A stretch of 64,000 nucleotides of DNA from Eledone cirrhosa (lineage: Eukaryota). The position numbers and the translations under genes were made by a program. The notes beneath the pieces were generated by a model. It made no database searches and was not told the DNA's origin. It worked only from the letters and a program-made list of their open reading frames with translations. The stretch spans positions 70,060,001 through 70,124,000 of the forward strand of contig OZ024740.1 of NCBI GenBank assembly GCA_964016885.1, in the 5' to 3' direction. This document shows positions 19,862 to 63,178 of this stretch, one piece after another (the stretch's first letter is position 1; each line of letters starts with the position of its first letter).

Positions 19862-20146
19862 CATTAGTTAAGCAAAACAAGACCACAAATTTCACAAGGA
19901 AGACATTATTAAAAGATTGTCAGCATATTTTAGTTTGATGTAAGGAATGTAGAGAATAATAATAGTAATAATATTAATAATAATAATGTCCGTTTACAAT
20001 TGTTTCGCTACTCCATATAATATTTCTGGATCAGATGCATATATATCATAATTGATCTGGTTCAGTTGAAAATAATTAACATATTTAAAGAACAAAGCGG
20101 CTCATCGGAACTTCAAAGGAACTCATCGGAACTTCATTAAAATAAT
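19862..20146 (-). mobile_element. Distal part of the inverted 5' copy of Penelope-like element 1 (pseudo-LTR end), separated from the rest by the Tx1 insertion
   Basis: Reverse complement of ~26428-26712. Confidence 0.9.
19992..20111 (-). ncRNA. Hammerhead ribozyme variant (CCGAUGA core, long stem II); inverted copy of 26463-26582
   Basis: Minus strand reads GTT-CCGATGA-GCCGC...GTAGC-GAAA-CAATTG-TA-AAC. Confidence 0.65.
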
Positions 20147-22966
20147 GATTTCTTTAAAAAGAAAAACATCACAGACGGAACAGAACGGTACGATGTGGGT
20201 TTTGTGCGTGTAAATATTTTTTATTATTTATATAAGAAAAGAAAAAAGACATAAAACATATATATATATAAACAATAAAATGAAAATAGAAACAATGAAA
20301 AATTCCCCAATAGGGGGGAAACCTCCGTGGGTTACTCGTGGCGAAAACCACACAAAAGACGACGGCCACCCTGACCACCAGGGAAAGCGCCCTCTCTCAA
20401 TTTTCCATACTTCAAACTACAAGCGTATATCCAGTGCGGTCCTCTTGACTCGGACCATTCTCGGTACATTCACCCACCTTTCAACAGACTTGCTAGAAGA
20501 CAGCACTTGCCTCTCCACCCTGATTTTCCTCTTCAAGTGAAACTTGAAAAAGTTAATCAGGGATTCGCCGAAGAGGAAAGTGTCTGTCTTTAACCCTATC
20601 AACCTTGTCCACCACACAATCTCTTTCGCCATGGCCACCAGACAGATGAAAACCGCCTGCCCTTGCTCCTCGAAGGAAGACGGCGAGACCATCTGCACAA
20701 TGGACTCAGTCGATAACCGGATCGGTCCTGCACGCGACAACAACTGTTCGACATAGCTCCACAAGTCAGCAATGCCCGGGCACTGAACGAGTGCGTGCAC
20801 GACGGTTTCGTCGCTCTGCGCGCATCTCGGACAGGCTCGGCTGACGGCACTTCCGTGCCTGTAGAGCTTATCTCGAACCGGCAGCGCTCCCCGGTAGCAC
20901 TGCCAGGCCAGGGATTTTTTGGAAGTTATCCATAGGCCCCGGGCTGAAAGTTCTCCGGAAGAGAGCAAGCAGCTGATCTTCTTCGACGCCCAGGATCTCT
21001 CCGAGAACGTCGTCGCTCTTCCCTTCCACTAGTCCTCTATAGAACGCCGAGGTGGATGTTCCACCGATACTGGTGCCCAACTGGGAGAGGGCAGTGAGCG
21101 CCTGGAGACATTCCAGTTTCCAAGCGCTATCCCTCGGTCTTTTTCTGACCCAGGACTGCAGCTCCGTCAAGGAGACGAGCTGTGGGAAAATGTGCCTGGC
21201 GAACGGCGACCACACCCGTTCACCATCAAGGAAGCATCAGAGATGTCGCAGCCTCAGCGTATGTTTGCGCATCATCAGTCATGGCATTCCCAGTCCTCCA
21301 CGCAACGGGTGTTGACAGCAGGTGGATCGTCTGACCATGGGAGCGCGTCCCTTCCACAAAAACCGGAAGAGGAGGCGCTCCATTTTGGTGAGAGTTGGGC
21401 TGGAGCAAGGGACGACGGTGAGGCGGTAGCAGATGGCGGATGTGATGTACGCATTCGCCACTTCCGCCCGGCCTTTCAGGGACAGCTTCCTCTCAGCCCA
21501 TTTCTGGGTGAGGGAGGCCACCCTGCTCGTCACCCGTTCCAGTTTTTCTCCATCTGGAGGTCCGGTCCGAACCAGACCCCGAGCAATTTAACCGGTCCGT
21601 CCGTCCAACGCCCCACCACGCTGTCGGACGGCATGGACTTGCCTCTCCAGGTGCCTAGCTGCAAGCCCACCGACTTTTCCTGGTTTATCTTTGCTCCTGT
21701 CACCGTTTCGTATTCCTTGAGCGCGGTGCCGAGCATCTGGACGTGCCTGGTGCTCGATACCACCACGGCGACGTCGTCAGCGTAAGCCGACTCGGATTTC
21801 CCACATCCTAATTCGCGTGGGACGCCCTTCATCGCCCCCAGTTTGTGCAGTAACGGCTCGAGAGCCAATATGTACAAGAGGGACGAGAGGGGACAACCCT
21901 GGCAAACTGAGCGCATGATGCTGAACGGCTGCGACAGGTGACCGTTCACCCTCACAACTGAGCAGATGTCGCTGTACATTGCTGCGATCCAACGCCTGAA
22001 AACGGGCCCGAGGCCGGCTGCCTCGAGGACCGCCGCCAGGTACCGATGGTCGACCCTATCGAATGCTTTGGATTGATCCAAGTTGATCAGGGCCCCACCC
22101 TTGCCAGGTTCCTTAACCACCCTCTCTATGATGTATCGCATGAGGTGGAGGTTGTCGTGTATGGATCTGTCCGGGATGGCGCATGTCTGCGCCTCTCCCA
22201 CCAGACCCTTGACGACAAGCGCCAACCTCGTTGCTAACACCTTGGCCAAAATCTTGAACTCTGCATTTAGCAGAGTTATGGGCCTGAAATTATCAATAAC
22301 ATCCCCCTTGTTCGGGTCTTTTCTCAGCAGCGCCAATGCTCCCCGGCTCACAAAACTGGGAATGCTCCCGTTCTGCTGCCAGTTACAGTAGACGTCTGCC
22401 AAGAGGTCCCGAACAAGTCTGGCATAAATGCATAAAGCTCGTAGGGTAGACCATCTAAACCTGGCGATTTACCTCTTGTACAGTTAGCCATCGCTTCCCG
22501 TATTTCACCGGCTGTTATTGGCTTTTCGCAACACTGTGCTGCGGTCGTCGAGAGCCGAGGCAGTCCGTCGAGGTATGCACTGAAGTCCATGTCCCGATCC
22601 GGGCCGCCGCCGCTCCCGAACAGTTCAGCAAAGTGCTGCTGAAAAGCTTCACACATCCGCTCGGGTTCGAGCATCACGCACCCGTTTTGGTCAGACAAAG
22701 ACCGAATTGTGGCTTTATTGCCACGTCGCGCCTCTGCCACCTGGGCCCATTGGACGGCTTTTGTCCCCTCGTGTTTCTGAGTACGCGCTCTAGCTCTGAC
22801 AACGCAGCCTTCGTGTTTTGCGTTGAAGAATTGGTCGAGTGCCAATCTCGCCGCAAGCACCTCGGTTGCGATGCCTGTCCTAAACGCCTCTTCTAGCTTT
22901 CTGACTAGCTCACCCTCTACTCTATTTTCCTCTATCACTACTCCTTTGCTAAACCTAATCGACTTT
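20147..22966 (-). mobile_element. 5'-truncated Tx1/L1-clade non-LTR retrotransposon with an 11-bp target-site duplication
   Basis: ATTAAAATAAT flanks both ends (20136-20146 and 22967-22977). The uninterrupted target is visible in the sense pLTR copy near 26428-26438. Confidence 0.92.
20417..22938 (-). pseudogene. Frameshifted ORF2 (reverse transcriptase plus C-terminal zf-RVT) of Tx1-like LINE
   Basis: ORF pieces contain KSPGLDGLPYELY, FRPITLLNAEFKILAK, LDQSKAFDRVDH, QGCPLS, AYADD and CPRCAQSDETVVHALVQC, spread over several frames. Confidence 0.93.
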
Positions 22967-24156
22967 ATTAAAATAATAAGAGAATGTTACATAATATAAT
23001 GTTCCATATATTGGTTTTTCACTATGGTGTCTTGGTTGCATCAGTTGTCAGCCATAATCAAGCAGTATTCATCTGACGAGGCTGCATTGTGTGAGATCTG
23101 CCTATGGTTAACAAGATGACTGCCAAAGTACATATTTACCTTACTAATTAGAGTGTGGTTTCAGGGGAAGTAACTCCTCGAGAGATTAGAAATTGTGGGT
23201 AGTTTATAGTTAAGTGCTAATTTTTTAATTTTTTAATTGAGAGACAATGTAGGGGAGGTAACTTATAATTATCTAAGTTAGTCATAGCTATTTAACTTAT
23301 TAGCTACAAGTAAAAATGGGGCTAGATGACTAAGTTGGGTCAAATATTCTATTGGCGAAGGAATTAGCCCTTCGATGTTGACAGCTAATAGTTACCTCCG
23401 TTCTATCGTTAATCGGTAGAGGTCGTGATAGAGTTATGTAATATGCTTCGGTAAGACAGAGGTCACAAGAGTTTCTTCGTCCATTGAACGGTTGGGCCCT
23501 AGCCAAGATATCCCATTTTAGTGAGTGTTGAACGTTGCTTAATTTAAGGTTTTTAATGCGCCTACCTAGCGATGTCGAACATCTATTGCTAAGGTCTCGG
23601 AAGGAAAAAGAGTGCGCGTTATAGCGTACCTTAAAAGGGTTAGAGGTAGACCCGATATAAGAGCTGGTATTCGAAGCAGTTTCAACCGTGCACCTATAGA
23701 CTATGTTGGGTGTCAGGCAGTGTCCATTTAAGGGGCATGCATTAGGGTAACGGCAGTTGCAGTTGCTTCTGCGGTTAGTGAGAGTAGGGTAATTTAACCT
23801 AAGCGGTAGGTCAGTGCTAGAAGGATTAGATGGGGGAGGTCTGCTACTAGAGTAATTATTGGTGTAGTGGCGTGGTGTATTTGATAGGGGTGGTGGTACC
23901 GCGGTGTGAGAGTTATACTGTCTTAGTTTATGATGGTTACTGAATGCGATGTGGCTAGCTAGGTTAGGTGTTGTGGAGAATGAGATTTTAATGTTATTTT
24001 TATTAAAGAGTTTGTAATATCTATGGTTGGGGGGGATGTTTAGATAGGATAGAGAAGACGCGTTTAGGGATATTAGTGGCTAGACTAGATGAGAATGGGG
24101 GGGGGGTTAAACCAGGTGATATTTCTAGGTCTATTCCTTCTAGGGGTTCTAGTGGA
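22967..24156 (-). mobile_element. Inverted 5' duplicate of the 3' part of Penelope-like element 1 (GIY-YIG region plus 3' UTR)
   Basis: Near-exact reverse complement of 25245-~26438. Confidence 0.92.
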
Positions 24157-26074
24157 AATAGATATGGATTTATCACCTGCAAGAACCCCCCGCACAACAT
24201 CCTGCTGGACCCTTTTGAGAAAGATCTATTCAACTTCGTCAGGAGTATTAAATTCAAAAAGCATTATAGACACAAGAATAATTTCCTTACTAAATTAGCA
24301 ACAACTATAAACAAATTTAAAGATAGCAACCTCTTACTTGTTATGTCTGACAAAACTAAAAATCTATACACCATGACTCCTGCATTAACCCTAGCCAGCA
24401 CCAACTCGGACATAACCAATAATGAGATTAACATCATACTTATGGCTAGGCAGACTATCATTGAATTCAACGGTGCACTCTGGACTGGAAAAGATGGAAC
24501 AGACAACTTTGACATCACGATGGGCTCAAATGACTCTGCGCAAATCACCGATTTAGTTGGAATTTACCTATTACATAACATCAGAGTCGAAATGCAACCC
24601 TTGCAAGACGGAATATACAGGGACGACGCCCTATTTGCAGTCCAAAATTGCACTAATCGGGGCATTGATTTGCTAAAAAAAAACAATTACATAGATTCTT
24701 TAAAAATAACGGTCTCTCTATCACCATCGAGCCGAACCATAAAGTAGTAAACTTCCTAGACGTCACCCAGAATCTCAACAATAACCTATATTACCCTTAC
24801 CATAAACCAGGTGAAATACTCACATATATTAGCCCATACTCTAACAACCCACCGGCAGTCATCAGAGAAGTAATCAAATCTATCTCGTATAGGATCTCAA
24901 TGCTATCAGCAAATGAGGAGATATTTATAAACCATGCACAATATTATAATAAGGCTCTTTCTGAATCTGGTTCTGGACAATCAATTTATTACATACCTAA
25001 ATGCCATAACACAGCAATTCACCATAATAAACTTAACACTAGAACTAGAAATACCTTAGCATATAGCCAGATTCGCCGGAATTTTAGCAGTAACAGCACC
25101 TATACAGGGAAGTTTAATGGTGGCAACGGCCTGCTCCCCACTCCAAGTAGCAAACTAAAAATCAACCCTAGAATAGGAATGAGAAATGGGATGACAAATA
25201 ACAAATTTCCAGGTAATAATAACCATAGGAAGGCCCCTACCAACTCCACTAGAACCCCTAGAAGGAATAGACCTAGAAATATCACCTGGCTTAACCCTTC
25301 ATTCTCATCTAATCTAGCCACTAATATCCCTAAACGCTTCTTCTCTATCCTATCTAACCCCCCCCCCCCCCCGCCAACCATAGATATTACAAACTCTTTA
25401 ATAAAAATAACATTAAAATCTCATTCTCCACAACACCTAACCTAGCTAGCCACATCGCATCAGTAACCATGATAAACTAAGACAATATAACTCCCACACC
25501 GCGGTACCACCACCCCTATCAAATACACCACGCCACTACACCAATAATTACTCTAGTAACACACCTCCCCCATCTAATCCTTCTAGCACTGACCTACCGC
25601 TTAGGTTAAACTACCCTGCTCTCACTAACCGCAGAAGCAACTGCAACTGCCGTTACCCTAATGTATACCCATTAAATGGACACTGCCTGACACCCAACAT
25701 AGTCTATAGGTGCACGGTTGAAACTGCTTCGAATACCAGCTCTTATATCGGGTCTACCTCTAACCCTTTTAAGGTACGCTATAACGCGCACTCTTTTTCC
25801 TTCCGAGACCGTAGAAATAGATGTTCGACATCGCTAGCTAGGCTCATTAGAAAACCTTAAATTAAGCAACGTTCAACACTCACTAAAATGGGATATCTTG
25901 GCTAGGGCCCAACCGTTCAATGGACGAAGAAAATCTTGTGATCTCTGTATTACAGAAGCATATTATATAACTCTATCACGACCTCTACCGATTAACGATA
26001 GAACGGAGGTAACTATTAGCTGTCAACATCGAAGGGCTAATTGCTTCGCCAATAGAATATTTGACCCAACTTAG
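24157..26074 (+). pseudogene. Disrupted Penelope RT-GIY-YIG ORF
   Basis: SDKTKNLY, FDITMGSNDSAQITDLVGIYLL, IYRDDAL, VNFLDVT, ITWLNPSFS, then CNC...CLTPNIVYRCTV...SYIGST...FKVRYNAH...CDLCITE. Stop TAG at 26072-26074. Several frameshifts. Confidence 0.92.
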
Positions 26075-26462
26075 TCATCTAGCTCCATTTTTACTTGTAG
26101 CTAATAAGTTAAATAGCTATGACTAACTTAGATAATTATAAGTTACCTCCCCTACATTGTCTCTCAATTAAAAAATTAAAAAAATTAGCACTTAACTATA
26201 AACTACCCACAATTTCTAATCTCTAGAGGAGTTACTTCCCCTGAAACCACCCTCTAATTAGTAAGGTAAATATGTCCTTTGGCAGCCATCTTGTTACCCA
26301 TAGGCAGATCTCACACAATGCAATCTCGACAGATGAATACTGCTTGATTATGGCTGACAACTGATGCAACCAAGACACCATAGTGAAAAACCAATATATG
26401 GAACATTATATTATGTAACATTCTCTTATTATTTTAATGAAGTTCCGATGAGTTCCTTTGAA

Positions 26463-26582
26463 GTTCCGATGAGCCGCTCTGTTCTTTAAATATGTTAATT
26501 ATTTTCAACTGAACCAGATCAATTATGATATATAGTCATCTGATCCAGAAATATCATATGGAGTAGCGAAACAATTGTAAAC
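26463..26582 (+). ncRNA. Hammerhead ribozyme variant in the pseudo-LTR of Penelope element 1
   Basis: GTT-CCGATGA-GCCGCTCT...~80 nt...GGAGTAGC-GAAA-CAATTG-TA-AAC. U4C core variant, palindromic ACAATTGT helix III, GUA site, 3-bp stem I. Confidence 0.68.
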
Positions 26583-26959
26583 GGACATTATTATTATTAT
26601 TAATATTATTATTATTATTTTCTACATGCCTTACATCAAACTAAAATATGTTGACAATCTTTTAATAATGTCTTCCTTGTGAAATTTGTGGTCTTGTTTT
26701 GCTTAACTAATGAATATTTCCAGCTCTGCGCACCTAACTTCTGCATGAACCCAGCCACCTAGCTGCTTTCTACTGCATATTGCACATTGAGCACATGCCT
26801 TTACGCTTTGGCTTCTAACTAATTCACCAATCTCTCCTCTCATGTCTCCTCTCCTATCTCCATCTCTCTCTTTAAGATTGGTTACTCTTGAACTGTGTAT
26901 ATATATATATATGTATATATATATACATATATATGTTTGTGTGTGTGTGTGTGTGTGTT

Positions 26960-28422: not shown

Positions 28423-29793
28423 GAGAAGGAGGAAATTTAAAAAATAGCTATTCAAGATGTTCATGTTAATGTTTAGGAAATACTTTTAATACAAGTTAAT
28501 GCACTCTCAAATTGTGTGGTAGATCCAGTTTGTAATAAATACTACAATGGCATCAGTAGAGTTTTGGATTTGTATATTCTTTCTTTTGTGCTCAGTAGCC
28601 AAATGGCAAAGTATAAACCATAGGTAATATCTAAATCTTGAAGCGCGAAGAAAGTTATATGAAATATCAATTGAATCTACAGACCTTGTTGCAAAAGCCT
28701 CCATGCAAAATGGATACAACCAACCTCACAACTTTGTAAGCTGATAAAACATGTATATAAGTATTCAGTCCTTATCAATTTCTCCACAAGAATAGCAACA
28801 AATTACCTGATAGGGATTGAATTCATTGTCTCTTTATGGATGTCAAAAATCTAATCTGCATCTTCCCGAAATGTAGATGCCTGTTATACATTTATCACGG
28901 AGACAGTTAGCTATCATTTTTAATACATGTTATTATATAATTCTCTTTGGTGAAGCATCTTTGCGAGCAGTTACAAGGAGCCACTAACTAGTCGATCGAA
29001 ATAGCAACTATATCTCCCATAAATTCTAATCTAATAAATCCTCCAAACATTCTATCCTATCCTGTTCTCACCCAATCCTGATTATTTTCTCTGTATTCTC
29101 CCCTACCAATTTGTACCTAGCCCTCTTGACCATATTTTAGAATGTATATTTTTCATACATTTTTATATTTTTCTTCTTTTTTACCCTTTCTCATATCCTC
29201 TGTTAGTGTCAACATACCCACTAAAAGCCCCACTCCCCACATACTCATGCCATTCAAAAACACTCAGGCACACCTGTCCATTTCACCCCTCGAATTTTCT
29301 CTATTTATACTTGAACGACCATTGAATATTTAGTTTCGTCAAATGGGAGTGCACAAAAGACACTCCAGAGTAACAAGACTCATCACCTAGCCAAAATAAA
29401 GAATATATATATATATACTACCTCCGTTGGTCAACTAGCAGAGACCGAAGGAGAGCCTCGGACAGAAACATGAACCTACCTCTCTAAATAAGTATCTAAT
29501 AATTTTTCTTCTCCATTTTATTAATATGCGTATAAATATGCAATTTAATTGCACTTTGCACTTCCGTCGTTGAAAAAGGATACAATGCTGAAACCGGTGC
29601 CGCGATTAAATACGGAAATACCCACTTTTTAAATAAATGTTTTGATATTATACTGAAAAAATCCCTCCACAATTTTCTACGGTATTTTTTTCCTTTTTAC
29701 TATTTGTTTATATATATATCAACTCGTGAGTCCCTTTTCTACATTCGATATATATATATATACATAAACGCACACACACACACACACACACAT

Positions 29794-31482: not shown

Positions 31483-31985
31483 TTGTTTGCATAATTACAA
31501 ACGAATCGAATGTTATTATTAATGTATATATGTATATATAAATATAGATTTGTGTGTGTGTGTGTGGGGGGGGGGATATAGGTATGCTTTTTTTAATACA
31601 TATAAATAAACAATAATATATATAGTGATGGCAGCATCACATTAAAACTTATTTCTACTATGTTTATAATATAAAAAATATGGTTCCTAAATAGGACTTA
31701 GAAAGAAATGTAAACACCGAAATATATATAAAAAGTCACTTAGCGACATAAATGTATATGCTAATGTATGTAATGTAAGTTGGATTCCAGGATTATTATA
31801 TGTACATAGTTTCTAACTTATATACTGTCTCAACTGGAGGTATTGTTGGTGAATATAACTTACTATTTAACACATATATTTAAAAAATTTAATTTAACAA
31901 CCATTTAATTTTACAACCATGTCTTTTTGAGAGCTATGAAATAGAGTTATTTATATCGAAATCACTATGTAATTTTTATGTCTTC

Positions 31986-32019
<34 letters not shown>

Positions 32020-32329
32020 TGAAGGGTTCATTCTACTGACATGGCTTTAAAATTGAGGGTTGTTTGCATAGTTACAAACGAATCGAATGTTATTAATGTA
32101 TATAAACCACAGACCCTCCATCTCAACTCACCTTTTGAAAAGCAGAAGAACTGCGAAACCGGTAAAGGAACCAAATAAATATATATATATTTTTTTTTAA
32201 AATAAGACTCCAGTTGCATTTTCGATTTCATCTCTTTTTCTTTATATATATATATATATATATAAGATATATAAGTTAAAGAAAGAAGAGTAACATGGTT
32301 GGCTTTACAATAAGGGCTTTATTTAAAGT

Positions 32330-32854: not shown

Positions 32855-33020
<166 letters not shown>

Positions 33021-33070
33021 GACGTAAAATAAGAACATTTTAAAAATTAACTTACTTACTAAAATTTTCA

Positions 33071-33151
33071 CTTCAACTAATTAGTTTCTGTAAGGGAATA
33101 AATATAGTTACGCAACGCAACCATAGAGAAATCCTTACGTCATCAGGGAGT
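33071..33151 (-). ncRNA. Hammerhead ribozyme (minus arm of the 530-bp element)
   Basis: Reverse complement of the 34093 motif, with a GUU triplet and a weakened stem I. Confidence 0.65.
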
Positions 33152-34092
33152 CTATTCTCAGCTAAGTTCCCAGGCAATGCGCGGACACTAGAAACCTATA
33201 TAAAAATAATAATTCAGTGGATGGAAAAAAGCGAGCGGGGACTAGATTCCAGGGCACTGAAAAAATTCACTGCCTACTTGGTCATTGGCAAATTCTAAAG
33301 AATCAATCACGTGACACTGAGGTTAATCAGTGAGGAGTGAAGTGGTAATAAGACAAGAGCCTAACTACTACCATGAACCATAGCAGTAAATTTCAGCAAG
33401 TTTTGCTCAACAAATAATTTGGAGATAAATATAGAGAATTAGTATATCTACCAACATATGTATACAGATGTATACCCATGCTAGCAAATATATATGTTAT
33501 GTCTTAGTACCTTTGTGGTTCTATGCAAGGGGATGCAGAACAATTATATGAAACACGTAAAATAAGAAAATTTTAAAAATTAACTTACTTACTAAAATTT
33601 TCACTCCTACTAATTAGTTTCTGTAAGGAAATAAATATAGTTACGCAACGCAACCATAGAGAATATTTTTAATTTTTTTATTTTATGTCTTTCGTATAAT
33701 TGTTCTGCATCCCCTTGCATAGAACCACAAAGGTACTAAGACATAACATATATATTTGCTAGCATGGGTATACATCTGTATACATATGTTGGTAGATATA
33801 CTAATTCTCTATATTTATCTCCAAATTATTTGTTGAGCAAAACTTGCTGAAATTTACTGCTATGGTTCATGGTAGTAGTTAGGCTCTTGTCTTACTATCA
33901 CTCCACTCCTCACTGATTAACCTCAGTGTCACGTGATTGATTCTATAGAATTTGCCACTGACCAAGTAGGCAGTGAATTTTTTCAGTGCCCTGGAATCTA
34001 GTCCCCGCTCGCTTTTTTCCATCCACTGAATTATTATTTTTATATGGGTTCCTAGTGTCCGCGCATTGCCTGGGAACTTAGCTGAGAATAGA

Positions 34093-34172
34093 TTCCCTGA
34101 TGACGTAAGGATTTCTCTATGGTTGCGTTGCGTAACTATATTTATTCCCTTACAGAAACTAATTAGTAGGAG
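34093..34172 (+). ncRNA. Type I hammerhead ribozyme (plus arm of the 530-bp element)
   Basis: TTCC-CTGATGA-CGTAAGG...ATGGTTGCG TTG CGTAACTAT...CCTTACA-GAAA-CTAATTAG-TA-GGAG. Palindromic ACTAATTAGT, GUA site. Confidence 0.85.
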
Positions 34173-34334
34173 TGAAAATTTTAGTAAGTTAATTTTTAAA
34201 ATTTTCTTATTTTACGTCTTTCATATAATTGTTCTGCATCCCCTTGCATAGAACCACAAAGGTACTAAGACATAACATATATATTTGCTAGCATGGGTAT
34301 ACATCTGTATACATATGTTGGTAGATATACTAAT

Positions 34335-34435
<101 letters not shown>

Positions 34436-35481: not shown

Positions 35482-35539
35482 CTTTATGCTCTGATGAGTC
35501 CCACTTATAGTGCGGATGAAACAATGTTAGCAAGTAAAG
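35482..35539 (+). ncRNA. Solo type I hammerhead ribozyme motif
   Basis: CTTTATGCT-CTGATGA-GTCC CAC TTATA GTG C GGAT-GAAA-CAATG-TT-AGCA AG TAAAG. Stem I is TGCT/AGCA, extended by CTTTA/TAAAG. GUU site. Confidence 0.75.
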
Positions 35540-35666
35540 ATATGCATATGCTATAGGCGTTCTTTGTTATTTATTATATCACGGCTCTGTCCTCAGACAT
35601 CGAGCTAACCTTATACTGCCTGCTGGATAAGTGGAGTGTTATACACCCCTGATCCTCTCCCTAGTA

Positions 35667-48458: not shown

Positions 48459-48494
<36 letters not shown>

Positions 48495-48507
48495 TTAATA
48501 TAGATGA

Positions 48508-48556
48508 GATTCTACAGGACTAGAACTGTTTCATTCTTTAGAAATCATCAGGAATC
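48508..48556 (-). ncRNA. Type I hammerhead ribozyme in a short non-coding element (48490-48627)
   Basis: Minus strand reads GATTC-CTGATGA-TTTC TAAA GAAT-GAAA-CAG TTCTAGTC CTG-TA-GAATC. Five-bp stem I, a true helix III, GUA site. Confidence 0.85.
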
Positions 48557-48626
48557 AACTTTTATACTCTGCTATGTATTGAGTACCTTACTTACTGTGG
48601 TTACCTCCGATTCAACCCGGAATAAC

Positions 48627-49732: not shown

Positions 49733-49898
49733 ATGAGATTCTACAGGACTAAAACTGTTTCATTCTGATTTCTTATGATTTCTAAAGAATGAAACTGTTC
49801 TAGTCCTGTAGAATCTCATCTATATTAAAACTTTTATACTCTGCTATGTATTGAGTACCTTACTTACTGTGGTTACCTCCGATTCAACCCGGAATAAC
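49733..49898 (+). repeat. Second copy of the 48490 family, with a short inverted head and a mutated HHR (CTTATGA) at 49767-49815
   Basis: Shares the HHR and the tail CTTTTATACTCTGCTATGTATTGAG...CCCGGAATAAC with 48490-48627. Confidence 0.8.
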
Positions 49899-49901
49899 TT
49901 A

Positions 49902-49998
<97 letters not shown>

Positions 49999-50155
49999 TG
50001 GAATAAATGCTCTGAAATAGCGATATATATGTGAATATAGACATAGAATATTCGAAAATATTCTGTATGTTTATAATAAACATTTTGAAGACCTAATCGC
50101 TATAGAATAGAATACGTCACGTATTACAATTAGATTCTCGATAAAAGCAAGGGAA

Positions 50156-50198
50156 GTAATCTACGCGTTTCATTCTCGTTAGAAATCATCAGGACTAC
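50156..50198 (-). ncRNA. Type I hammerhead ribozyme (second minus copy at 50466-50508)
   Basis: Reverse complement of the 50910 motif. Confidence 0.9.
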
Positions 50199-50909
50199 AT
50201 ATCCAGTGCTTTTATCGAGAATGACACAGCTAGAGACTTATAGAATACTTAGCTGTGTACAGGAACTGGTTTGAAAGAGCGGTTGCCGGTCCGGCAGAAA
50301 TTAGAAATTGGAATAAATGCTCTGAAATAGCGATATATATGTGAATATAGACATAGAATATTCGAAAATATTCTGTATGTTTATAATAAACATTTTGAAG
50401 ACCTAATCGCTATAGAATAGAATACGTCACGTATTACAATTAGATTCTCGATAAAAGCAAGGGAAGTAATCTACGCGTTTCATTCTCGTTAGAAATCATC
50501 AGGACTACATATCCAGTGCTTTTATCGAGAATGACACAGCTAGAGACTTATAGAATACTTAGCTGTGTACAGGAACTGGTTTGAAAGAGCGGTTGCCGGT
50601 CCGGCAGAAATTAGAAATTGGAATAAATGCTCTGAAATAGCGATATATATGTGAATATAGACATAGAATATTCGAAAATATTCTGTATGTTTATAATAAG
50701 CATTTTGAAGACCTAATCGCTTTATAAACATACAGAATATTTTCGAATATTCTATGTCTATATTCACATATATATCGCTATTTCAGAGCATTTATTCCAA
50801 TTTCTAATTTCTGCCGGACCGGCAACCGCTCTTTCAAACCAGTTCCTGTACACAGCTAAGTATTCTATAAGTCTCTAGCTGTGTCATTCTCGATAAAAGC
50901 ACTGGATAT

Positions 50910-50952
50910 GTAGTCCTGATGATTTCTAACGAGAATGAAACGCGTAGATTAC
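50910..50952 (+). ncRNA. Type I hammerhead ribozyme (further copies at 51220, 51530 and 51840)
   Basis: GTAGTC-CTGATGA-TTTCT AACG AGAAT-GAAA-CGCG-TA-GATTAC with palindromic ACGCGT. Stem I is extended by a perfect 16-bp ATTCTCGATAAAAGCA/TGCTTTTATCGAGAAT. Confidence 0.93.
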
Positions 50953-52002
50953 TTCCCTTGCTTTTATCGAGAATCTAATTGTAATACGTGACGTATTCTA
51001 TTCTATAGCGATTAGGTCTTCAAAATGTTTATTATAAACATACAGAATATTTTCGAATATTCTATGTCTATATTCACATATATATCGCTATTTCAGAGCA
51101 TTTATTCCAATTTCTAATTTCTGCCGGACCGGCAACCGCTCTTTCAAACCAGTTCCTGTACACAGCTAAGTATTCTATAAGTCTCTAGCTGTGTCATTCT
51201 CGATAAAAGCACTGGATATGTAGTCCTGATGATTTCTAACGAGAATGAAACGCGTAGATTACTTCCCTTGCTTTTATCGAGAATCTAATTGTAATACGTG
51301 ACGTATTCTATTCTATAGCGATTAGGTCTTCAAAATGTTTATTATAAACATACAGAATATTTTCGAATATTCTATGTCTATATTCACATATATATCGCTA
51401 TTTCAGAGCATTTATTCCAATTTCTAATTTCTGCCGGACCGGCAACCGCTCTTTCAAACCAGTTCCTGTACACAGCTAAGTATTCTATAAGTCTCTAGCT
51501 GTGTCATTCTCGATAAAAGCACTGGATATGTAGTCCTGATGATTTCTAACGAGAATGAAACGCGTAGATTACTTCCCTTGCTTTTATCGAGAATCTAATT
51601 GTAATACGTGACGTATTCTATTCTATAGCGATTAGGTCTTCAAAATGTTTATTATAAACATACAGAATATTTTCGAATATTCTATGTCTATATTCACATA
51701 TATATCGCTATTTCAGAGCATTTATTCCAATTTCTAATTTCTGCCGGACCGGCAACCGCTCTTTCAAACCAGTTCCTGTACACAGCTAAGTATTCTATAA
51801 GTCTCTAGCTGTGTCATTCTCGATAAAAGCACTGGATATGTAGTCCTGATGATTTCTAACGAGAATGAAACGCGTAGATTACTTCCCTTGCTTTTATCGA
51901 GAATCTAATTGTAATACGTGACGTATTCTATTCTATAGCGATTAGGTCTTCAAAATGTTTATTATAAACATACAGAATATTTTCGAATATTCTATGTCTA
52001 TA

Positions 52003-52043
<41 letters not shown>

Positions 52044-52112
52044 TATGAAGAGAGAAGAAACATTTAGATATAATTAGTAATAAAATGTATCATACCTAAA
52101 CTGCTCCTAGAT

Positions 52113-52202
52113 TCCTAGACTACGTAGTTTCGTGGCATAAACAAAAACAATACATCATAAAGATATAGAGTCCTTGCGAGGTCTGCCGACTTATCAAGAG
52201 GA
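52113..52202 (-). ncRNA. Hammerhead ribozyme, U3-A8 variant (minus arm)
   Basis: Reverse complement of the 52718 motif, with one stem I mismatch next to the cleavage site. Confidence 0.68.
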
Positions 52203-52717
52203 TACCTCATTTTACTAGCCTCAAGAACGCGTCTACACGACGTGAGAAAGAATCCCAAAAGGCGGAGGGGGTATTTATATCGAAGCCGCAGAAGAGGTGG
52301 TGAAGGAGGCGAGAAGTATGAGTAATGGCAGCTTTCCAGCACTCACCACACTTCAAAGATTACTCGACCAGAGGGAGTTATTAACAATATATTTAGAAAC
52401 ACACAGATACATGCGGACACACACATATACATGAATGCATCCACACCCAACCGCGAGTTAAGGGTGCCAACCTCACCGATGTTGCTCAATGGTGACTGCT
52501 GGAAAGCTGCCATTACTCATACTTCTCGCCTGCTTCACCACCTCTTCTGCGGCTTCGATATAAATACCCCCTCCGCCTCCGTGGTATTTTCTTCGGGGTT
52601 ATAAGAGGCTTAGCTCTGTTTCTCGACCGTTAAGTCGCGTGACTATCTCCCCCTCCGCCTTTTGGGATTCTTTCTCGCGTCGTGTAGACGCGTTCTTGAG
52701 GCTAGTAAAATGAGGTA

Positions 52718-52807
52718 TCCTCTTGATAAGTCGGCAGACCTCGCAGGGACTCTATATCTTTATGATGTATTGTTTTTGTTTATGCCACGAAACTACGTAG
52801 TCGAGGA
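52718..52807 (+). ncRNA. Type I hammerhead ribozyme, U3-A8 compensatory variant
   Basis: TCCTC-TTGATAA-GT(C)GGCA...TGCCAC-GAAA-CTACGTAG-TC-GAGGA. Palindromic ACTACGTAGT, GUC site. Confidence 0.82.
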
Positions 52808-53046
52808 ATCTAGGAGCAGTTTAGGTATGATACATTTTATTACTAATTATATCTAAATGTTTCTTCTCTCTTCATAATGTATTTTTAACTCTGATACTGG
52901 TTCAGTCTAGTTCAACCGGATTGGTCTGTCCCAGTCATTCATTGAGCAACATCGGTGAGGTTGGCACCCTTAACTCGCGGTTGGGTGTGGATGCATTCAT
53001 GTATATGTGTGTCCCCGCATGTATCTGTGTGTTTCTAAATATATTG

Positions 53047-53098
<52 letters not shown>

Positions 53099-54435: not shown

Positions 54436-54889
54436 TGCGTGTCTGTGACTGTGACTCAGCAGGTTGAGTTCTTCTTTTCGGACAGTGAACCTCCCCAACT
54501 AATGTCGATCAAATAGATCAGAAGTACATAAAAGTGATATATAGCTGCTATTTTCTTCTTTTCATTTTAAATAGGGTCCTCTGCTGATTGATAGACTCAA
54601 TAAACATGATAAATCTTGACAGCAGTTCTCAACCTTAGACCCCAGACGTTGAACAACTTTAAACCTAATAATAACTTCATCAGTTCATCCATTGCAATAT
54701 TCTACAATAAGGCAGCGAGTGCGCTCTTCGATCTACCAATGTATACATATGTATGTATGTATGATGTATGCATGTATGTATGAATGTATGTATGTATGTA
54801 TGAATACATGAATATATAAAGAGTGATATAAACACACACACGGGGACGTGAGATGAGAACACAATACCAAAGTAGTGTTTAGATAATGT

Positions 54890-55030
54890 TTATTATGGCT
54901 AAGTAACGAGTCTTGTTTCTCTGGATTTTCACCTATGCACTCGCAGGATCACTAGACAAGAGTCTCGTCTGATACTCGTATGAGTAGACAGGTGAAACTC
55001 CAGAGTAACAAGACTCACTACTTAGATATA
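54890..55030. repeat. Short inverted element with a deleted hammerhead relic (54960-55016)
   Basis: GAGTCTCGT-CTGAT[core incomplete]...GAAA-CTCCAGAG-TA-ACAAGACTC with a 9-bp imperfect stem I. An inverted copy lies at ~54900-54934. The same 3' half occurs at ~19605-19655 and ~29362-29405. Confidence 0.55.
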
Positions 55031-55329
55031 AAGGACATTTACACACTACTTCGGTATTGAGTCCTCGTCTCATATCCCTTAATATCACAAGCACATGTGT
55101 GTATATAATTGTATTTATATATGTGTGTGTGAGGAGGTAGCCATTTTTACTTGATATAATAGGCTAAATGAGTTGGGGGTCTATAACCCAATGAAAAATA
55201 AGTATCTGTATATGTCACTGTTATAACTAACTAACAGGCGGTTTTCTGCTAGCATATGTAGTATGCATATCGGTATTATACGCAAATATATATACATGTA
55301 AATTGAAAAGTAAATTGACAATATCTGCT

Positions 55330-55950
55330 TCTTCGCCCATGTATTTCTGAGAGGGTCGTGGGGGCAGAGTCCTTCTCAAATACTCCTTCCAGCGAGTCTG
55401 TCAGAAGCAAACATCTCTAACTGATCCAGCTGGGTCCCAAAGCGTGACCAGACAAGCTCATGGATGTTATCTAGCTGTCTTGCTCAGGGTCTACTTCTGG
55501 GTCTCTTGCCGGTTGGTTTTGCCTGTAAAATGTATTCAGAGATTCTTTACTGAGACATTCTAACCACATGCTCATAATATCGGAGTTGTGATCTCTCAAT
55601 TCGGAGAAGCGGCTCTACCAGGAGTGACTCTCTGGTCTCTGAGTTATGCACTTTGTCGGGTAACGTTACTCCAAAGAGCCTTCGGAGGAATCCCATTTCT
55701 GCCACTTTTATTTGCAATATTTGTATTCTTTTGGTCATTACTCAAGATTCATGATCCTCGGTAAGAGTTGGCAGGAATACCTGGAAGACACCGAGTTTGG
55801 CTTTTACACCTGGCGCATTACTGTATCAGCTTTTGCAATTCTTGCACTTAATTCAGCCTCCTGCATTCCATCACTCATGAACACGGCTCCAAGATACTTG
55901 AACTTCTCTAACTGCTTCAGTAGAACTCCATTCATATGTATATAAATTTG
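55330..55950 (-). pseudogene. 3' fragment of an RTE-clade non-LTR retrotransposon
   Basis: Minus-strand peptides LKQLEKFKYLG...ARIAKA, AEMGFLRRLFGVTLPDKVHNSETRESL...IERSQLRYYEHVVRM and GKRPRSRP. Confidence 0.85.
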
Positions 55951-56139
55951 AGGGTTTCTGTTCACCCGTCAATCCCACAATGTGTATGTGTTTGTGTGAA
56001 TGTATGTGTGTGTAAAAGGGAGGAAAGGGCTACACACATATATGTCTCTAACTTTAAAACAGTGACACACACACACACGTCTCTAATTTAAGAACGCCGA
56101 CAAAATCACGCGCGCGCACATACACACGCTGTCCTATTA

Positions 56140-57498: not shown

Positions 57499-57631
<133 letters not shown>

Positions 57632-57917
57632 GCACACATTTATTCTTTGTCCCATTGGCCTGCGAAATCTTGCAATATATATATAAATATATAAATGTAT
57701 ATATATATATATAGTATTAGTTATACTATTTATGGTTATGTAAACACAAAACCTTAAGCAGTTGTAAGTATTTTACACACACCCTAAATAGTGGTAGGCA
57801 GTAATGTATTACTACCTTATTACCAGTAAGTTAAGTAGCTCAATGTAAAAACATCAGATGATTTACAGAGCAGATATATGAAATATAAGAATCAAAGAAC
57901 TGTTCAAAACATTATTG

Positions 57918-57964
57918 TGCTTACAGCTGTTTCCTCCAAACCGAGGTTTGGATTCTTCGGAGCA
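57918..57964 (-). ncRNA. Hammerhead ribozyme variant (inverted copy of 60214-60260)
   Basis: Reverse complement of the 60214 motif. Confidence 0.75.
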
Positions 57965-58307
57965 ATTTATTAATGCATGGACAGTTATATGACCTCCTTT
58001 TCAGCCGAGAGACATACCAATACATATTCAAACATTGATACATATTCAAACATTGTGGGTCAACATTCATTACAGAATTTAGAGTGGCAGTACACACTTC
58101 GAGATTACATTTATATTAATAGGTACAATCAAAAATCAAAGATATAGGTTAAAGTACAACATGAAGATAAGTGGTTATATAGTGCAAATGTTATATGTGT
58201 GGCACGCATATGCGTCTTGTTTATATAGTGTGGCAGAGATATATGTGTGGTAGAGGCACTTAGGTAGGTAAATAAGAGTGTTAGGTTGGTAGATCTGGTG
58301 GCAAAGT

Positions 58308-58769
58308 CATTATAACCAGCGGACTAACGCACAGAATAATTGTAACTGTAGAGCTAATAGAACCTGCCCTTTAGATAAAAAATGCCTAACCAAGGATGTC
58401 ATATACTCATGCACAGTCACGACTAATAACTCTTCAGAAACCTATGTAGGCTCCACTTCTAACTGCTTCAAAATCAGATATAACTCGCACATCCACTCGT
58501 TCAAAAAGCACAGCCTAGCCAACTCCACCTCACTTTCTAGCTACATACACTATCTAAAATCTAAAAATAAACCATACACACTCAAATGGGAAGTGATAGG
58601 CAGCGCGACCTCGTACAAACCACCTAATAAATTCTGTAACCTCTGTATACTAGAGACACACAATATTATCTTCTCCAACCGTAACCTACTTAACAAAAAA
58701 TCTGAGGTGTTTGCAACTTGCCAGCACCGCCTCAGACATTCCTTCCAAAACTTTAAGCCCTATATATAG
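58308..58769 (+). pseudogene. GIY-YIG endonuclease C-terminus of Penelope element 2 (no start codon, absent from the ORF track)
   Basis: Open frame NCNCRANRTCPLDKKCLTKDVIYSCTV...TYVGSTSNCFKIRYNSHIHSF...LKWEVI...CNLCILE...CQHR, ending at TAG 58767-58769. Confidence 0.9.
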
Positions 58770-60213
58770 CAATGTCGGACTGGAACCTAACACCGCATCT
58801 AGCATCAAACACCAGAGACACACCCTATACTACATACCCAACACTAGCTGATCCATTATAACACAAACAACGACATCCCTCTGGAACCCTTCGCAGGGAA
58901 AATACCCATTTATACCTCTACGGCAGGTGTGACAACATCCACCCACTTGGACGGCACTACACCGCTCTAAGGGTAATTTTGAGCATGAATTGATCGGTTG
59001 GATGGTGTTGGGCAGAGGAAACACCTTCCTTAGACAGATGTAAAATGATTTAATCGAGTAGCGCTGTTGACCAGTAGGACCGGGCTGCTGAGCGCAGTGA
59101 GTGAATGCAATGCAACTGCCGTGCGGGTTGTACGTATATGGATGATCTGACGGTCAGAGAGGGGTCGCGAGGACTGCGGATTGACCTTTGGCCTGCCTGG
59201 GGACGATTATCTTTCGACATCCAATGTAGCAAGCGATGACCCAGATCTTACCAGAGATCATTGGGTCCCGAAGCAGTCCTGCAATCACCGCGCCTGGTCA
59301 TATGAGCAGACTACAACCACAGAGATCATTAATTTAGAATCCTCGCTCATCATCTATAATTTCCATTTGTAGCACCTTAAGATGGGTTAATCCACCCTAA
59401 TAATAATATGATCACCTTCAGCATAATTTAGTTAAACTACTCTATAGTTAGTACACTTTATGCTTTAAAAGTCTCTCTTGGAAGGTGCACCTCACCATAG
59501 AATTTAGGGTCTATATTGGGACACATTTTAATGACTAGATATAGAAACCCCAGAGTTACCTCCCCGCATGCATTAACTCCCCTTAGCCACACACACACTT
59601 CCGGTATTCAATGGCGTTTCTCGAAACGTAACAACCTCCTGTATCGAACTAAAGAACACCAGGCTACGATCTCTAACTGGATTGTCGTGGATTATGTGAA
59701 AGGCATATAATCGAAATATACACTCCCTTGACCATGAAAATGCCGAAGTACATGAATAACTTGACATCCCTGCGCTGTGCATCTCCAATACTTATAACAC
59801 TTTTAATGCTTGCACTATCTTTAATGCTTATAATATTTCTCCACACACAGACTATATCAATCATATAAAGACTTTGCCACCAGATCTACCAACCTAACAC
59901 TCTTATTTACCTACCTAAGTGCCTCTACCACACATATCTCTCTGCCACACTATATAAACAAGACGCACATGCGTGCCACACATATAACATTTGCACTATA
60001 TAACCACTTATCTTCATGTTGTACTTTAACCTATATCTTTGATTTTTGATTGTACCTATTAATATAAATGTAATCTCGAAGTGTGTACTGCCACTCTAAA
60101 TTCTGTAATGAATGTTGACCCACAATGTTTGAATATGTATCAATGTTTGAATATGTATTGGTATGTCTCTCGGCTGAAAAGGAGGTCATATAACTGTCCA
60201 TGCATTAATAAAT

Positions 60214-60260
60214 TGCTCCGAAGAATCCAAACCTCGGTTTGGAGGAAACAGCTGTAAGCA
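60214..60260 (+). ncRNA. Hammerhead ribozyme variant in the pseudo-LTR of Penelope element 2
   Basis: TGCT-CCGAAGA-ATCCAAACC TC GGTTTGGAG-GAAA-CAGCTG-TA-AGCA. U4C core variant, long stem II, palindromic ACAGCTGT. Confidence 0.78.
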
Positions 60261-60361
60261 CAATAATGTTTTGAACAGTTCTTTGATTCTTATATTTCAT
60301 ATATATATATATATATATATACATTTATATACTGGACTCCTTTGAAGAGGACCTGCTGAAA

Positions 60362-62807
60362 ATGATCAAAAACGTTAAGCTCAGAAAGAAACACCAATGC
60401 AGCAATCCATTCTTAACGTCCCTTGATACACTAATAACTAAGATCAAGAATGACCCGCACCTCTTCGTCACCTCCGACAAAACCAAAAAGCTGTACAAGA
60501 TGGACGCGAGTGAGTATAAAAAATTCATCTATAAGGAACTACACAAAGACTACAAAAAGACACCCTCTAGTACCCTAAATGACATAAATAGAGTAGGGAA
60601 GGATATAGTCACCAGCCTAGAAATAGAAAAGTACACTAACCCGTACGTCCCTCTGACGCCTAAATTCTCTCTTAAGGATCACAAATATGACTTTAATGAA
60701 AGCCCCTCTATTAGACTTATATGCCCCTCTACATCAGATATAGGTAAGATTAGTAAAGTGATCCTTGACAGAGTACTACTCGAGCTTAATAGAAAGGCTA
60801 AGGTCTACCTCTGGGGCAACACACCTGAAATTCATCCAGTTTGATATAGATAGCTACTACGCCTCTATCTCCCCCATACTCTTAAATAAGGCACTTATCT
60901 TAGCTAGATCTAACACTAGCCTCACCAAAAAAGAAATAGACATAATTCTAGCGGCACGTAGAACCATTATCCAGTTCGAAGGCTCCCACTGGACCAGAAC
61001 CAACCGTCCTGATAACTTCGATGTCACGATGGGGTCCAGCGACTCAGCGCAAGCAACTGACCTGGTTGGGATATACCTCCTACATAAGCTTAGGGAAGAA
61101 ATACCGGCCCTACAAGGAGGTGTATATAGGGACGACGCCCTGTTTACTGTTAGGAACCATAGCCCCCGTAGGATAGAGAACCTTAACAAACATATACACA
61201 GGTTCTTTAAGTCATACGGCCTATCCGTAACTATGGACCTCAACCACAGGGTTGTCAACTTCCTGGACGTGACCCTGGAGTTGAGTACGGGCTTATACAA
61301 GCCATACCATAAGCCTGGAGAGTGCCTCTCTTATATTAATTATGCCTCCAACCACCCTAAGCAGACTCTCAACTCCATTGTCTATAGTATCTCACATAGG
61401 ATCTCGAGGCTATCCGCCAATGAGGATATCTTCAACCAAGCGGCTGATTACTACAATAGGGCCCTGATAAGCGCCGGCTTTAACCGAGGAATTTCCTACA
61501 TCCCTAACGCTAGCTCTAGAAACCACCCCCCTCATAAAACTAACGTTATAGTAAGCCATACCTATAACCGATCACGCGGCGACCTCGTTAAAGTCGGATA
61601 TAATAGAATAGATAACCGCACCAAAGATCACGTCCCCGGCGACGGTGAATACTGTAGATTACTCAAACTTTTCCCCTATTACAAAACCAACAAAGGCGAC
61701 GGCCTACTACCAACGCCTTCCAACCAACATCTTCGTGTACATAAACATGGAAGTGGTAGAAAGAGTGCACCCGAGCATAAAGTGAAAGGGGCACCGAACG
61801 GGCGACAGCGCATTAACACACATATGAGCGATCACTTAGATGGAACTACCCGTAGCAAAAGTACAAGGACACGTAATCGCCACCGTAACGTCCTATGGTT
61901 CCACCCCCCCTACTCTCGAAGTGTGGCCTCCAACATACCCCGGATATTCTTCGAAGCCTTAGAGAAGAACTTCCCACCCAACCATAGGTATAGAAAAATT
62001 CTTAATAGGAACAATATAAAAATATCCTTCTCTACTACTCCTAACCTAGCAGACATCATAGGAACAACGAACCACAGTAAGATCACCAAGACACAGCACC
62101 TCGACGCAGACGCACCTACACCTGACAATAACTGTATCGGCCTTAACAACTCCCTGACAGCATCCAATAGTGTTGGCAACGGCATCCGCAGACGCAACCA
62201 GAATGACCGCGAAGTGACTGGGGAGCATGCAAAACATGGCGTGCGGAATAACAATCGCACCATCCCGCGTGCTGTGGGTTGTAATTGTGCTAACGACAGC
62301 TGCGGTAGCGCAGCTAGCAACGTAGGCAGCAACAATGATAGCCTTATCGTGGGAAATAGACGGAACAGCGACAGAAATTGCAACTGCCGCGACAGAGGAC
62401 GGTGCCTCCTTAGAGGTTACTGCTTGACCGATAGGGTTATATATAGATGCACTATTACTAGCCACAATAGCGTTAAACATTATATAGGGGCCACCTCCGG
62501 CCCGTTCAAAATTAGGTTTCGAACACATCTCCACTCTTTCACAAATAGAAAACTAAGGCACTCCACCTCGCTCGCGGACTACATCACATCACTAAAGGAC
62601 TTAAACATTAGCTTCTCCACGCACTGGGAGATTGTCGACAGGGCTGCACCGTACAACTTCAAGAGGAAATGCGATCTTTGCCTCATGGAGCTCTACCACA
62701 TCATAACTGCACCCCACGAGCTCATCAACAGCAGAGCTGAAACAGCGATAAGTTGTACACATCGCTTAAAAATATCCTTCTTTAGATGGGTTAAGAATGA
62801 AGAGTGA
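60362..62807 (+). pseudogene. Penelope RT-GIY-YIG polyprotein with one frameshifting lesion near 60820
   Basis: SDKTKKLY, IRLICPSTSDIGKISK / FDIDSYYASI, FDVTMGS, VYRDDAL, VNFLDVTL, WFHPPYS, CNC, VIYRC...HYIGAT, CDLCLME. Confidence 0.95.
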
Positions 62808-63060
62808 AATAGCACACTGGATCTCCCTGCAACAAGTCTTAACACCCCGGCGGGCAGGCGCAGCAAAATAACACCCAGAAAACAATCCTTGCATACCAAA
62901 AATTATCCGGGAAAGACTGCCCTAACACCGGCCAAAGTTACCTCCCTTGACCTGCTGCAAAATCAAAACAAGATATTTTTGCGAGCAATGAATCTTGATG
63001 TGGATTTAACCCCCAAAACTCTTTCCGAACTATATAAGGAACTCTTGTGATTGTTTATGC

Positions 63061-63095
63061 CCTTGAGAAGCCCAACTGGGCGAAACGTACGTAGG
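63061..63095 (+). ncRNA. Minimal hammerhead ribozyme, U3-A8 variant, in the pseudo-LTR of Penelope element 3
   Basis: CC-TTGAGAA-GCCC AACT GGGC-GAAA-CGTACG-TA-GG with palindromic ACGTACGT. Stem I is short. Confidence 0.75.
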
Positions 63096-63178
63096 TGATA
63101 TTTTAAATAAACATGTTTTAACGGTCTATTCTCCGATTTTTCACTTTCCCACGTACATTTATATATTTATTTATAAAT

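Follow-up and report, generated by a model that had tools for sequence, protein, structure and literature searches.

Evidence that Penelope-type machinery may have inserted both Penelope-like elements and non-coding hammerhead ribozyme repeats in a 64-kb stretch of Eledone cirrhosa DNA

What mobilises retrozymes, the short non-coding repeats that carry a hammerhead ribozyme (HHR), and how Penelope-like elements (PLEs) form their inverted repeats are both given as open questions in the parts of the literature on which we draw (including PMC7229834 and bioRxiv 10.64898/2026.07.22.740005). A 64-kb stretch of Eledone cirrhosa DNA (contig OZ024740.1, positions 70,060,001 to 70,124,000; hereafter the window) raises the two questions together, since PLEs lie in it beside several short HHR families. 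We consider it probable that PLE-type machinery, with a reverse transcriptase (RT) and a GIY-YIG endonuclease, inserted both the PLEs, which are of the Hydra clade and now dead, and the short HHR families, which we read as non-LTR (long terminal repeat) retrozymes and retrozyme-like units (Table 1). The window is animal-type DNA with a GC content of 37.5% and abundant TA and CA microsatellites.

Outside microsatellites we found 11 local inverted structures, nine of which contain an HHR or its remains. All nine are arranged head-to-head (P = 0.002 if orientation were random). They include every inverted non-coding element, seven in all (442, 17.8k, 33k, 49.7k, 310, 52k and 54.9k), as the initial annotation had claimed when it ascribed the diverging inversion of the PLEs to the non-coding elements too; the HHRs of 17.8k and 54.9k are decayed, and 49.7k retains HHR halves only. 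Two of the three PLEs carry an inverted 5′ copy, again as first described: ~1.49 kb at 94-96% identity in PLE-A, interrupted by an L1-like element that is flanked by an 11-bp duplication (20136-20146 and 22967-22977), and 441 bp at 99.3% identity in PLE-B. Arm identities of the non-coding pairs overlap with these values (310, >99.8%; 52k, 96.6-98.7%; 33k, 96-97%; older pairs, 74-80%). The outer ends are also alike. Overall, 3′ ends lie 7-250 nt behind the ribozyme cut site: 130 and 170 nt for the paired arms of 310, 80 and 247 nt for 52k, 54 and 171 nt for 33k, and 133, 42-48 and 60 nt for PLE-A, PLE-B and PLE-C. The sequence behind PLE-A (26713-26897) may be a one-sided tail.

Public reads bear on one part of this footprint. 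We compared them with positions 51706-53047, which comprise the 52k element and a single unit of 310, using four of 15 listed runs. The 310 family and the ~590-bp family of 52k are multicopy in one organism (A) and present in a second (B), and the 310 family is dispersed, with thousands of reads carrying many variant letters; a 340-bp contig from organism B differs from the 310 unit at one letter. Contigs from run X1 enter (AT)n at the window's own 3′ ends, at 51738 (two contigs), 52882 (11) and 52387 (four), and (AT)n follows at three of the six X1 loose ends listed. Five opposite-strand joints stand among 15 of the 16 joint rows. One of them, 52726/52943, is found in both restriction site-associated DNA (RAD) runs with 83 and 57 reads and one start, and in our reading head-to-head is the only orientation that fits its 2-nt overlap. 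The joints 51706/51847 (four and three reads) and 51706/51823 (three reads) are head-to-head by geometry, but weak. We discarded joints 52304/52575 and 52473/52956, since repeats within the stretch itself account for them, and also the RAD loose-end piles at 51732/51736 and 51906-51910 and the end pile at 52845, which lie at AATT sites with low agreement and were taken for library cuts or chimeras.

A search with the PLE-C frame yielded 163 relatives, of which 120 were used for a profile; with TBLASTN, this profile places exactly three PLE loci and one inverted copy in the window. Their endonuclease regions are 42.6-45.5% identical to each other, confirming three distinct elements. The Hydra clade is described as having a C-terminal GIY-YIG endonuclease, a CxCX5C linker, no CCHH motif, CxxC and CxH motifs, DKT, canonical HHRs at the 3′ end and insertion into (TA)n, with the Octopus bimaculoides family Hydra-1_Obim among its members (Craig et al. 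2021, PMC8557442 and supplement). All three window PLEs have the CxCX5C linker before the endonuclease, an IVY..YIG motif, a single Cys between GIY and YIG and hence no CCHH motif, and CxxC and CxH around the conserved E and N. In PLE-A and PLE-C the profile places GIY-YIG C-terminally, behind the RT, and DKG is changed to DKT (SDKTK), as in 74 of the 120 relatives; this region is absent from PLE-B. The N-terminal RWK falls in a part missing from all three (RW[KR] is present in 58 of 120 relatives). A Pfam scan of the PLE frames gave no family at E 0.001, the GIY-YIG matches of PLE-A and PLE-B (E 0.02-0.04) being weak and below cut-off, and a PDB profile search gave nothing useful. The window PLEs differ from described Hydra elements in that the copies are dead, in the U4C ribozyme cores of PLE-A and PLE-B, and in the long linker between RT and endonuclease of PLE-C (2.8 kb, truncated). 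None of the three copies can be active: in PLE-A, ~50 profile positions at the N terminus and ~140 amino acids of the RT (break at 24375/24382) are missing and the frame is shifted, PLE-B retains the endonuclease alone of its coding region, and PLE-C has lost ~70 N-terminal positions and has a frameshift near 60830. The label 'autonomous-type' thus suits the families but not these copies.

We scanned for HHRs with a purpose-made descriptor that accepts either C3-G8 or U3-A8, tolerates one additional mismatch and permits a long stem II. In its strict form it matched nothing in four shuffles; in five shuffles the relaxed form gave one match of at least 20 in each, reached at least 24 in two and gave none at 30. 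Clear motifs are present in 310 (six copies), 33k, 52k, 32.1k and PLE-B, and those of 48.5k and 35.5k score lower, at 22-26. Four and two units of 310 and one HHR each in 33k and 52k pass the scan, and 442 has exactly two intact cores. The core of 52k (52723) is U3-A8 with a long stem II. The initial annotation placed an HHR-bearing pseudo-LTR at the 3′ end of each PLE. This is clear for PLE-B (score 30-32, above all nine shuffles; U4C core), but borderline for PLE-A (core 26466, cut site 26579, U4C core, ~90-nt stem II; 24.9 in the relaxed scan only, where two of five shuffles reach 24), and in PLE-C the motif was recognised by eye (U3-A8 core, stem I of 2 bp followed by a mismatch) and passed neither scan; no direct-repeat pseudo-LTR pair was seen at the PLEs. 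The motifs of all three are thus variants of the canonical Hydra-clade HHR. Under single-strand minimum free energy folding, 310, 33k and 52k took a hammerhead-like form and the PLE motifs did not; such folding is a poor test for dimer-active hammerheads. An Rfam scan returned no hammerhead family among the 150 of 396 matches listed, nearly all of them microsatellite-driven microRNA matches below the gathering score.

Among 78 related metagenome loci, several of which form near-identical families, 47 have an HHR match and none does after shuffling; 53 of 58 HHR matches have a CT..GA core and none starts CC. The U4C core, found in both arms of two unrelated Hydra-type families in the window (26466, 20108, 60218 and 57960), has no counterpart among those 58. 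U4C lowers HHR activity in vitro, yet is tolerated in a viroid (PMC3088659). Two further resemblances concern the ribozyme regions. Over the HHR core and stem II, 48528-48553 in the 48.5k solo and the 310 unit have 26 of 28 nt in common, the only link between two non-coding families. Each of the three PLEs has a GTTACYTCCC-type motif in its 3′ region (26142, 26231, 59555 and 62937), and the motif recurs with one mismatch at 50948, just behind the 310 cut site; we rejected it as proof of kinship between 310 and the PLEs, as it is a single mismatched occurrence in ~3 kb of units and is found in none of the 78 related loci. In PLE-B it follows GAAAC and resembles an HHR half of 54.9k (16 nt, E 0.35), possibly a relic ribozyme end.

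The ends of the non-coding elements are associated with TA tracts. Ten of 17 non-coding ends, placed by hand within this one window from homology between arms or copies, lie within 3 nt of (TA)5+, as against 1.1% of background positions and three of 24 control ends (L1, short interspersed nuclear element (SINE)-like and other repeats; Fisher P = 0.003); within 10 nt the counts are 10 of 17 and five of 24 (P = 0.02). This count omits the 32.1k and 35.5k solos, whose ends are marked by the tract alone. The 33k pair is flanked by (TA)57 on the left and (CT)n(TA)n on the right, both outer ends of 310 lie in long TA tracts, and 52k and 17.8k (76-80% identity, decayed HHR core at 17981) have TA tracts on both sides. 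PLE-A adjoins an imperfect TA tract on its left, and PLE-B meets (TA)11 on its right. In the related loci, (TA)4+ occurs within 250 nt behind 22 of 64 HHR matches, compared with 189 of 4496 windows. Three of these loci (L038 2932, L042 2419 and L050 2444) have opposite-strand HHRs facing one TA tract, like 310 and 52k. It is rather unlikely, though compatible with mobilisation by PLEs, that the elements landed at short TA/AT sites and that the long tracts grew later by slippage or RT stuttering. TA-type sequence of the unit's own, 2-5 nt long, stands at seven of the eight outer ends with known continuation (23% expected; summed length P = 0.014, values read off by hand), so later growth is compatible with the data. 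Moreover, the right end of 33k passes through (CT)n that extends the unit's own CTCT, and the left end of PLE-B has only ATATAT. However, tracts flank both outer ends of 310, 52k and 17.8k, one tract is common to 310 and 52k and another to PLE-B and PLE-C, and Hydra families are recorded as preferring (TA)n (PMC8557442).

More tentatively, and as a possibility rather than a probability, we propose that the retrozymes carry the full PLE footprint and that a PLE enzyme nicks both strands of the TA site, reverse-transcribes the RNA twice from two fixed sites and joins the cDNAs head-to-head. In the model that goes with the probable reading given at the outset, a PLE protein would bind multimeric or circular HHR RNA. 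Both strands would then be nicked at a self-complementary TA site, as suggested by a Poseidon PLE protein that in vitro cleaves and extends both strands, starting without target homology (PMC11167929). From each nick, reverse transcription would start within the RNA, at one of a small set of sites that lie behind the ribozyme and are particular to the family, which is where the ends are found, and two 5′-truncated cDNAs would be joined centrally. The junctions are blunt in 310 (50721/50722), of 0-1 nt in 33k (33663/33665), with one or two added nt inside a 12-bp palindrome in 442, of ~9 nt of imperfect microhomology in 52k (52490-52498) and of about 5 nt in PLE-B. Joining would give what is observed, a head-to-head pair whose 3′ ends face outward and which is tailed on one side. 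Expansion into large arrays would come later, through recombination of the DNA itself, and would need no active ribozyme, as the 442 satellite suggests.

This scheme has close precedents. The Penelope elements of Adineta vaga have head-to-head inverted pseudo-LTRs and a tail and are mobilised in trans (Arkhipova et al. 2013, PMC3846280), and the Anolis PLE PAc initiates internally in vitro, where the tail corresponds to the interval that separates two such RT start sites (Frangieh et al. 2024, PMC11167929). The window matches them in its head-to-head repeats, the palindrome at the 442 junction, one-sided extension, 3′ ends behind the HHR and AT-rich targets; it differs in tail length (40-170 nt versus 30-40), in that the cargo is a closed non-coding HHR unit, and in arms whose stagger points to two priming events over self-priming. 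The arms of 33k (647 and 675 nt, each longer than one unit) are offset from each other, by 83 nt at their 5′ ends and by 117 nt at their 3′ ends, and those of 52k by 150 and ~170 nt; in both elements each arm reaches beyond the other on one side. The different distances at which paired arms of 310, 52k and 33k stop behind the cut site resemble such a PLE tail. An unlikely alternative is that PLE machinery acted but that the inverted arm arose by fold-back or self-priming of one cDNA, as proposed by Arkhipova et al. (2013). The 442 palindrome, of a kind seen in Adineta PLEs (PMC3846280), would suit fold-back, as would the containment of the short arm within the long one in PLE-A, PLE-B and 310, and the alleles that arms share. 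Shared alleles count for insertion by PLE-type machinery as well: at six of seven positions checked, the two arms of 52k agree where reads or contigs often carry another letter. However, the 310 junction is blunt, and because neither arm of 33k or 52k is a sub-copy of the other, plain fold-back is insufficient; a copy from a single cDNA would need an extra template jump, whereas two RT events on RNA of more than unit length suffice. On these two elements, the arm structure favours two RT events on multimeric RNA over fold-back.

A third and still less likely explanation has one component only: the 'non-coding' elements would be 5′-truncated ends of other PLE families, copied in cis, with no separate RNA parasite. 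PLE insertions are heavily 5′-truncated and often inverted, inverted 5′-truncated copies being a general PLE feature (PMC8557442). The HHRs of 33k, 52k and 48.5k have a long helix III, as in Hydra relatives, the 32.1k and 35.5k solos and the 54.9k family are indistinguishable from stubs, and a possible decayed endonuclease, seen by eye and unmatched by the Hydra profile, lies upstream of 29.35k. Against this, 310, 442, 33k and 52k are closed units, in which reading on past the ribozyme leads back to what stands in front of it. Contigs under two organism labels contain the W-linker-Y joint of the ~590-bp unit, a 577-bp contig from organism B gives the order linker-Y-Z-W, supporting the permuted unit, and no non-coding unit matches the Hydra protein profile. 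Like metazoan non-LTR retrozymes, whose tandem units measure 150-450 bp with a GC content below 50% and which are proposed to be mobilised by PLEs or to derive from them, the window's units are short, low in GC and tandem, with a type I HHR and no open reading frame (310 unit: 310 bp, GC 34.5%, tandem, no open reading frame, six intact type I HHRs; 442 unit: 442 bp, GC 36.9%). They differ in carrying the footprint but no homology to the three window PLEs, and the 33k (527 bp) and 52k (~590 bp) units exceed the retrozyme length range.

That fragile (TA)n tracts caused inverted duplication of neighbouring DNA is very improbable: (TA)5+ makes up 5.3% of the window between 17.2 and 64 kb and two inverted structures lack an HHR (37.7k and 63.2k), but such accidents predict neither the orientation bias nor the link to ribozymes, and 3′ ends recur in contigs. 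Twin priming by long interspersed nuclear elements (LINEs) yields an inverted upstream segment that does not overlap the rest and a single 3′ end, unlike the structures here, in which both arms carry 3′ ends and overlap. Mobilisation of HHR RNAs by L1/Tx1-like LINE machinery is the least probable of all, for while the window has two L1-like copies and LINEs are named as candidates in PMC7229834, neither copy has an adjacent inverted partner and four L1 ends lie >300 nt from any TA tract.

Several observations weigh against insertion of both classes by PLE-type machinery. BLASTN of nine non-coding queries against the three window PLEs found no homology (best E 0.11; 310, E 0.28), PLE-C has no inverted copy but a 12-bp target duplication (60320-60331 and 63154-63165), and some solos may be plain 5′-truncated PLE ends. 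Central microhomology is heterogeneous throughout, and in PLE-A it is not measurable. The earlier statement that most elements abut (TA)n holds for the non-coding ends, but only one of six PLE ends lies within 3 nt of (TA)5+ and two within 10 nt (non-coding versus PLE ends, P = 0.37). Control ends are themselves above background (P = 0.002), some tracts are common to two elements, and the ends are hand-placed in one window. The TA microhomology of at least 2 nt at seven of eight outer ends stands against the in-vitro PLE start without target homology, and may indicate a different priming mode. As for the reads, this locus itself could be among the sources of the X1 loose ends, and the two extra 310 joints have three or four reads, from libraries in which chimeras at AATT sites abound.

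The three window PLEs are not supported as the mobilising partners, because the non-coding families have no homology to the window PLEs, the PLE copies are dead, and cephalopod Naiad PLEs, like Hydra, prefer (TA)n (PMC8557442). Of the two-component system proposed in the initial annotation, the common footprint of orientation, 3′ ends, one-sided tails, TA flanks and reads is retained, and these three PLEs as partners are not. Nor is an ordered series from solo through inverted pair and array to higher-order repeat supported, as these belong to unrelated families. The 310 array looks to have been inserted whole, because it has one difference over 6.5 units. The satellite is a real higher-order repeat, with a 3964-bp 9-mer (100% identity over 3 kb), but only two of its 38 units, those nearest the inversion (16677 and 16235), have an intact HHR core. 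Growth at the DNA level is what this points to, because 36 of 38 cores are mutated while the 3964-bp repeat has been copied exactly.

Other features stand near these elements. A near full-length L1/Tx1-like element (39737-45600, minus strand) has an ORF1-like frame, endonuclease, RT, zf-RVT and an (AAT)n 3′ tail, and is 81% identical to the truncated copy inside PLE-A. A 109-bp near-perfect hairpin (63179-63287), in which no HHR was found, begins 14 nt behind the PLE-C target duplication, and an old inverted pair (37718-38232; 72% with tracts), also with no HHR found, surrounds a TA-rich centre. Ends related to 54.9k, which has no adjoining TA tract, lie at 19594-19683 and 29344-29409. Copies of a small dispersed repeat often end at TA runs (31483-31530, 32018-32095, 35909-35961 and 36197-36255); one stands immediately before the HHR of 32.1k and may be part of the 32.1k element. 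Frames at 28500-29100 (plus strand) and 45800-46900 (minus strand) are unmatched by the Hydra profile, and by eye we take them to be like decayed GIY-YIG domains of other PLE clades. At 55200-56000 (minus strand) is a decayed RT-like frame, by eye of another non-LTR element. The SINEs of the window presumably resemble those of octopus.

Table 1 Positions of the PLEs and HHR-bearing elements in the window
Feature	Position	Strand	Details
442-bp HHR satellite	1..16745	-	38 units; 3964-bp 9-mer higher-order repeat
442 inverted arm	16746..17148	+	3′ end 244 nt behind mutated cut site, into (TA)13
17.8k, old element	17803..18532	both	minus unit and partial tandem, then plus arm
PLE-A 5′ inverted copy	19862..24156	-	as 19862-20146 and 22967-24156; HHR-like core at 20108
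L1/Tx1-like non-LTR element	20147..22966	-	5′-truncated; within PLE-A inverted arm
PLE-A body	24157..26712	+	Hydra-type, dead; truncated, ~140-aa deletion, frameshifts
32.1k, solo HHR	32097..32177	+	U3-A8 core at 32135, then (TA)6; ends without second copy to fix them
33k	33017..34339	both	head-to-head pair of ~527-bp unit; HHR core 34097
35.5k, solo HHR	35491..35665	+	core 35491; 3′ segment to long TA tract; no second window copy
48.5k, solo	48492..48626	-	135 bp; intact HHR (core 48551); between two TA tracts
49.7k	49735..49903	both	rearranged sister of 48.5k; head-to-head HHR 3′ halves and same 70-bp segment
310-bp non-LTR retrozyme	49992..52006	both	2.35 units minus, 4.15 units plus
52k	52041..53049	both	head-to-head pair of ~590-bp circularly permuted unit
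54.9k	54843..55078	both	old (74%) head-to-head pair; decayed HHR by eye
PLE-B 5′ inverted copy	57874..58314	-	HHR core 57960 (U4C)
PLE-B	58315..60298	+	endonuclease-coding end and 1.5-kb 3′ region; HHR core 60218 (U4C), cut site 60256
PLE-C	60332..63153	+	Hydra-type, 5′-truncated, frameshifted; HHR-like motif 63063-63093

PLE architecture, the (TA)n preference of Hydra elements and the mobilisation of retrozymes by PLEs are all already in print. The last was proposed by Cervera and de la Pena (2020, PMC7229834) and argued by Li, Clavereau and Pollet (2026, bioRxiv 10.64898/2026.07.22.740005), where the evidence, in the parts available, is co-occurrence and pseudo-LTR homology. Those parts do not treat head-to-head insertion, fixed 3′ ends and tails, or TA targets: the word 'inverted' does not occur in the available text of PMC7229834 and occurs once, in a reference title, in that of the bioRxiv paper, whose supplements may bear on Xenopus junctions. 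A literature search largely without subscription papers found no description of head-to-head, tailed, TA-targeted retrozyme insertions.

Taken together, the window offers a modest new line of evidence, with a mechanistic hint, for an already published hypothesis. Its component parts are of known kinds, and one window is insufficient to name the partner. A footprint common to PLEs and retrozymes is nevertheless an independent kind of evidence that can be counted in any good assembly, and short closed units allow fold-back and double priming to be distinguished, whereas long PLE copies do not. If the proposed mechanism is right, the staggered arms of 33k and 52k would be direct records of double reverse transcription, and the symmetry of the TA target would explain why inverted pairs are so frequent here.

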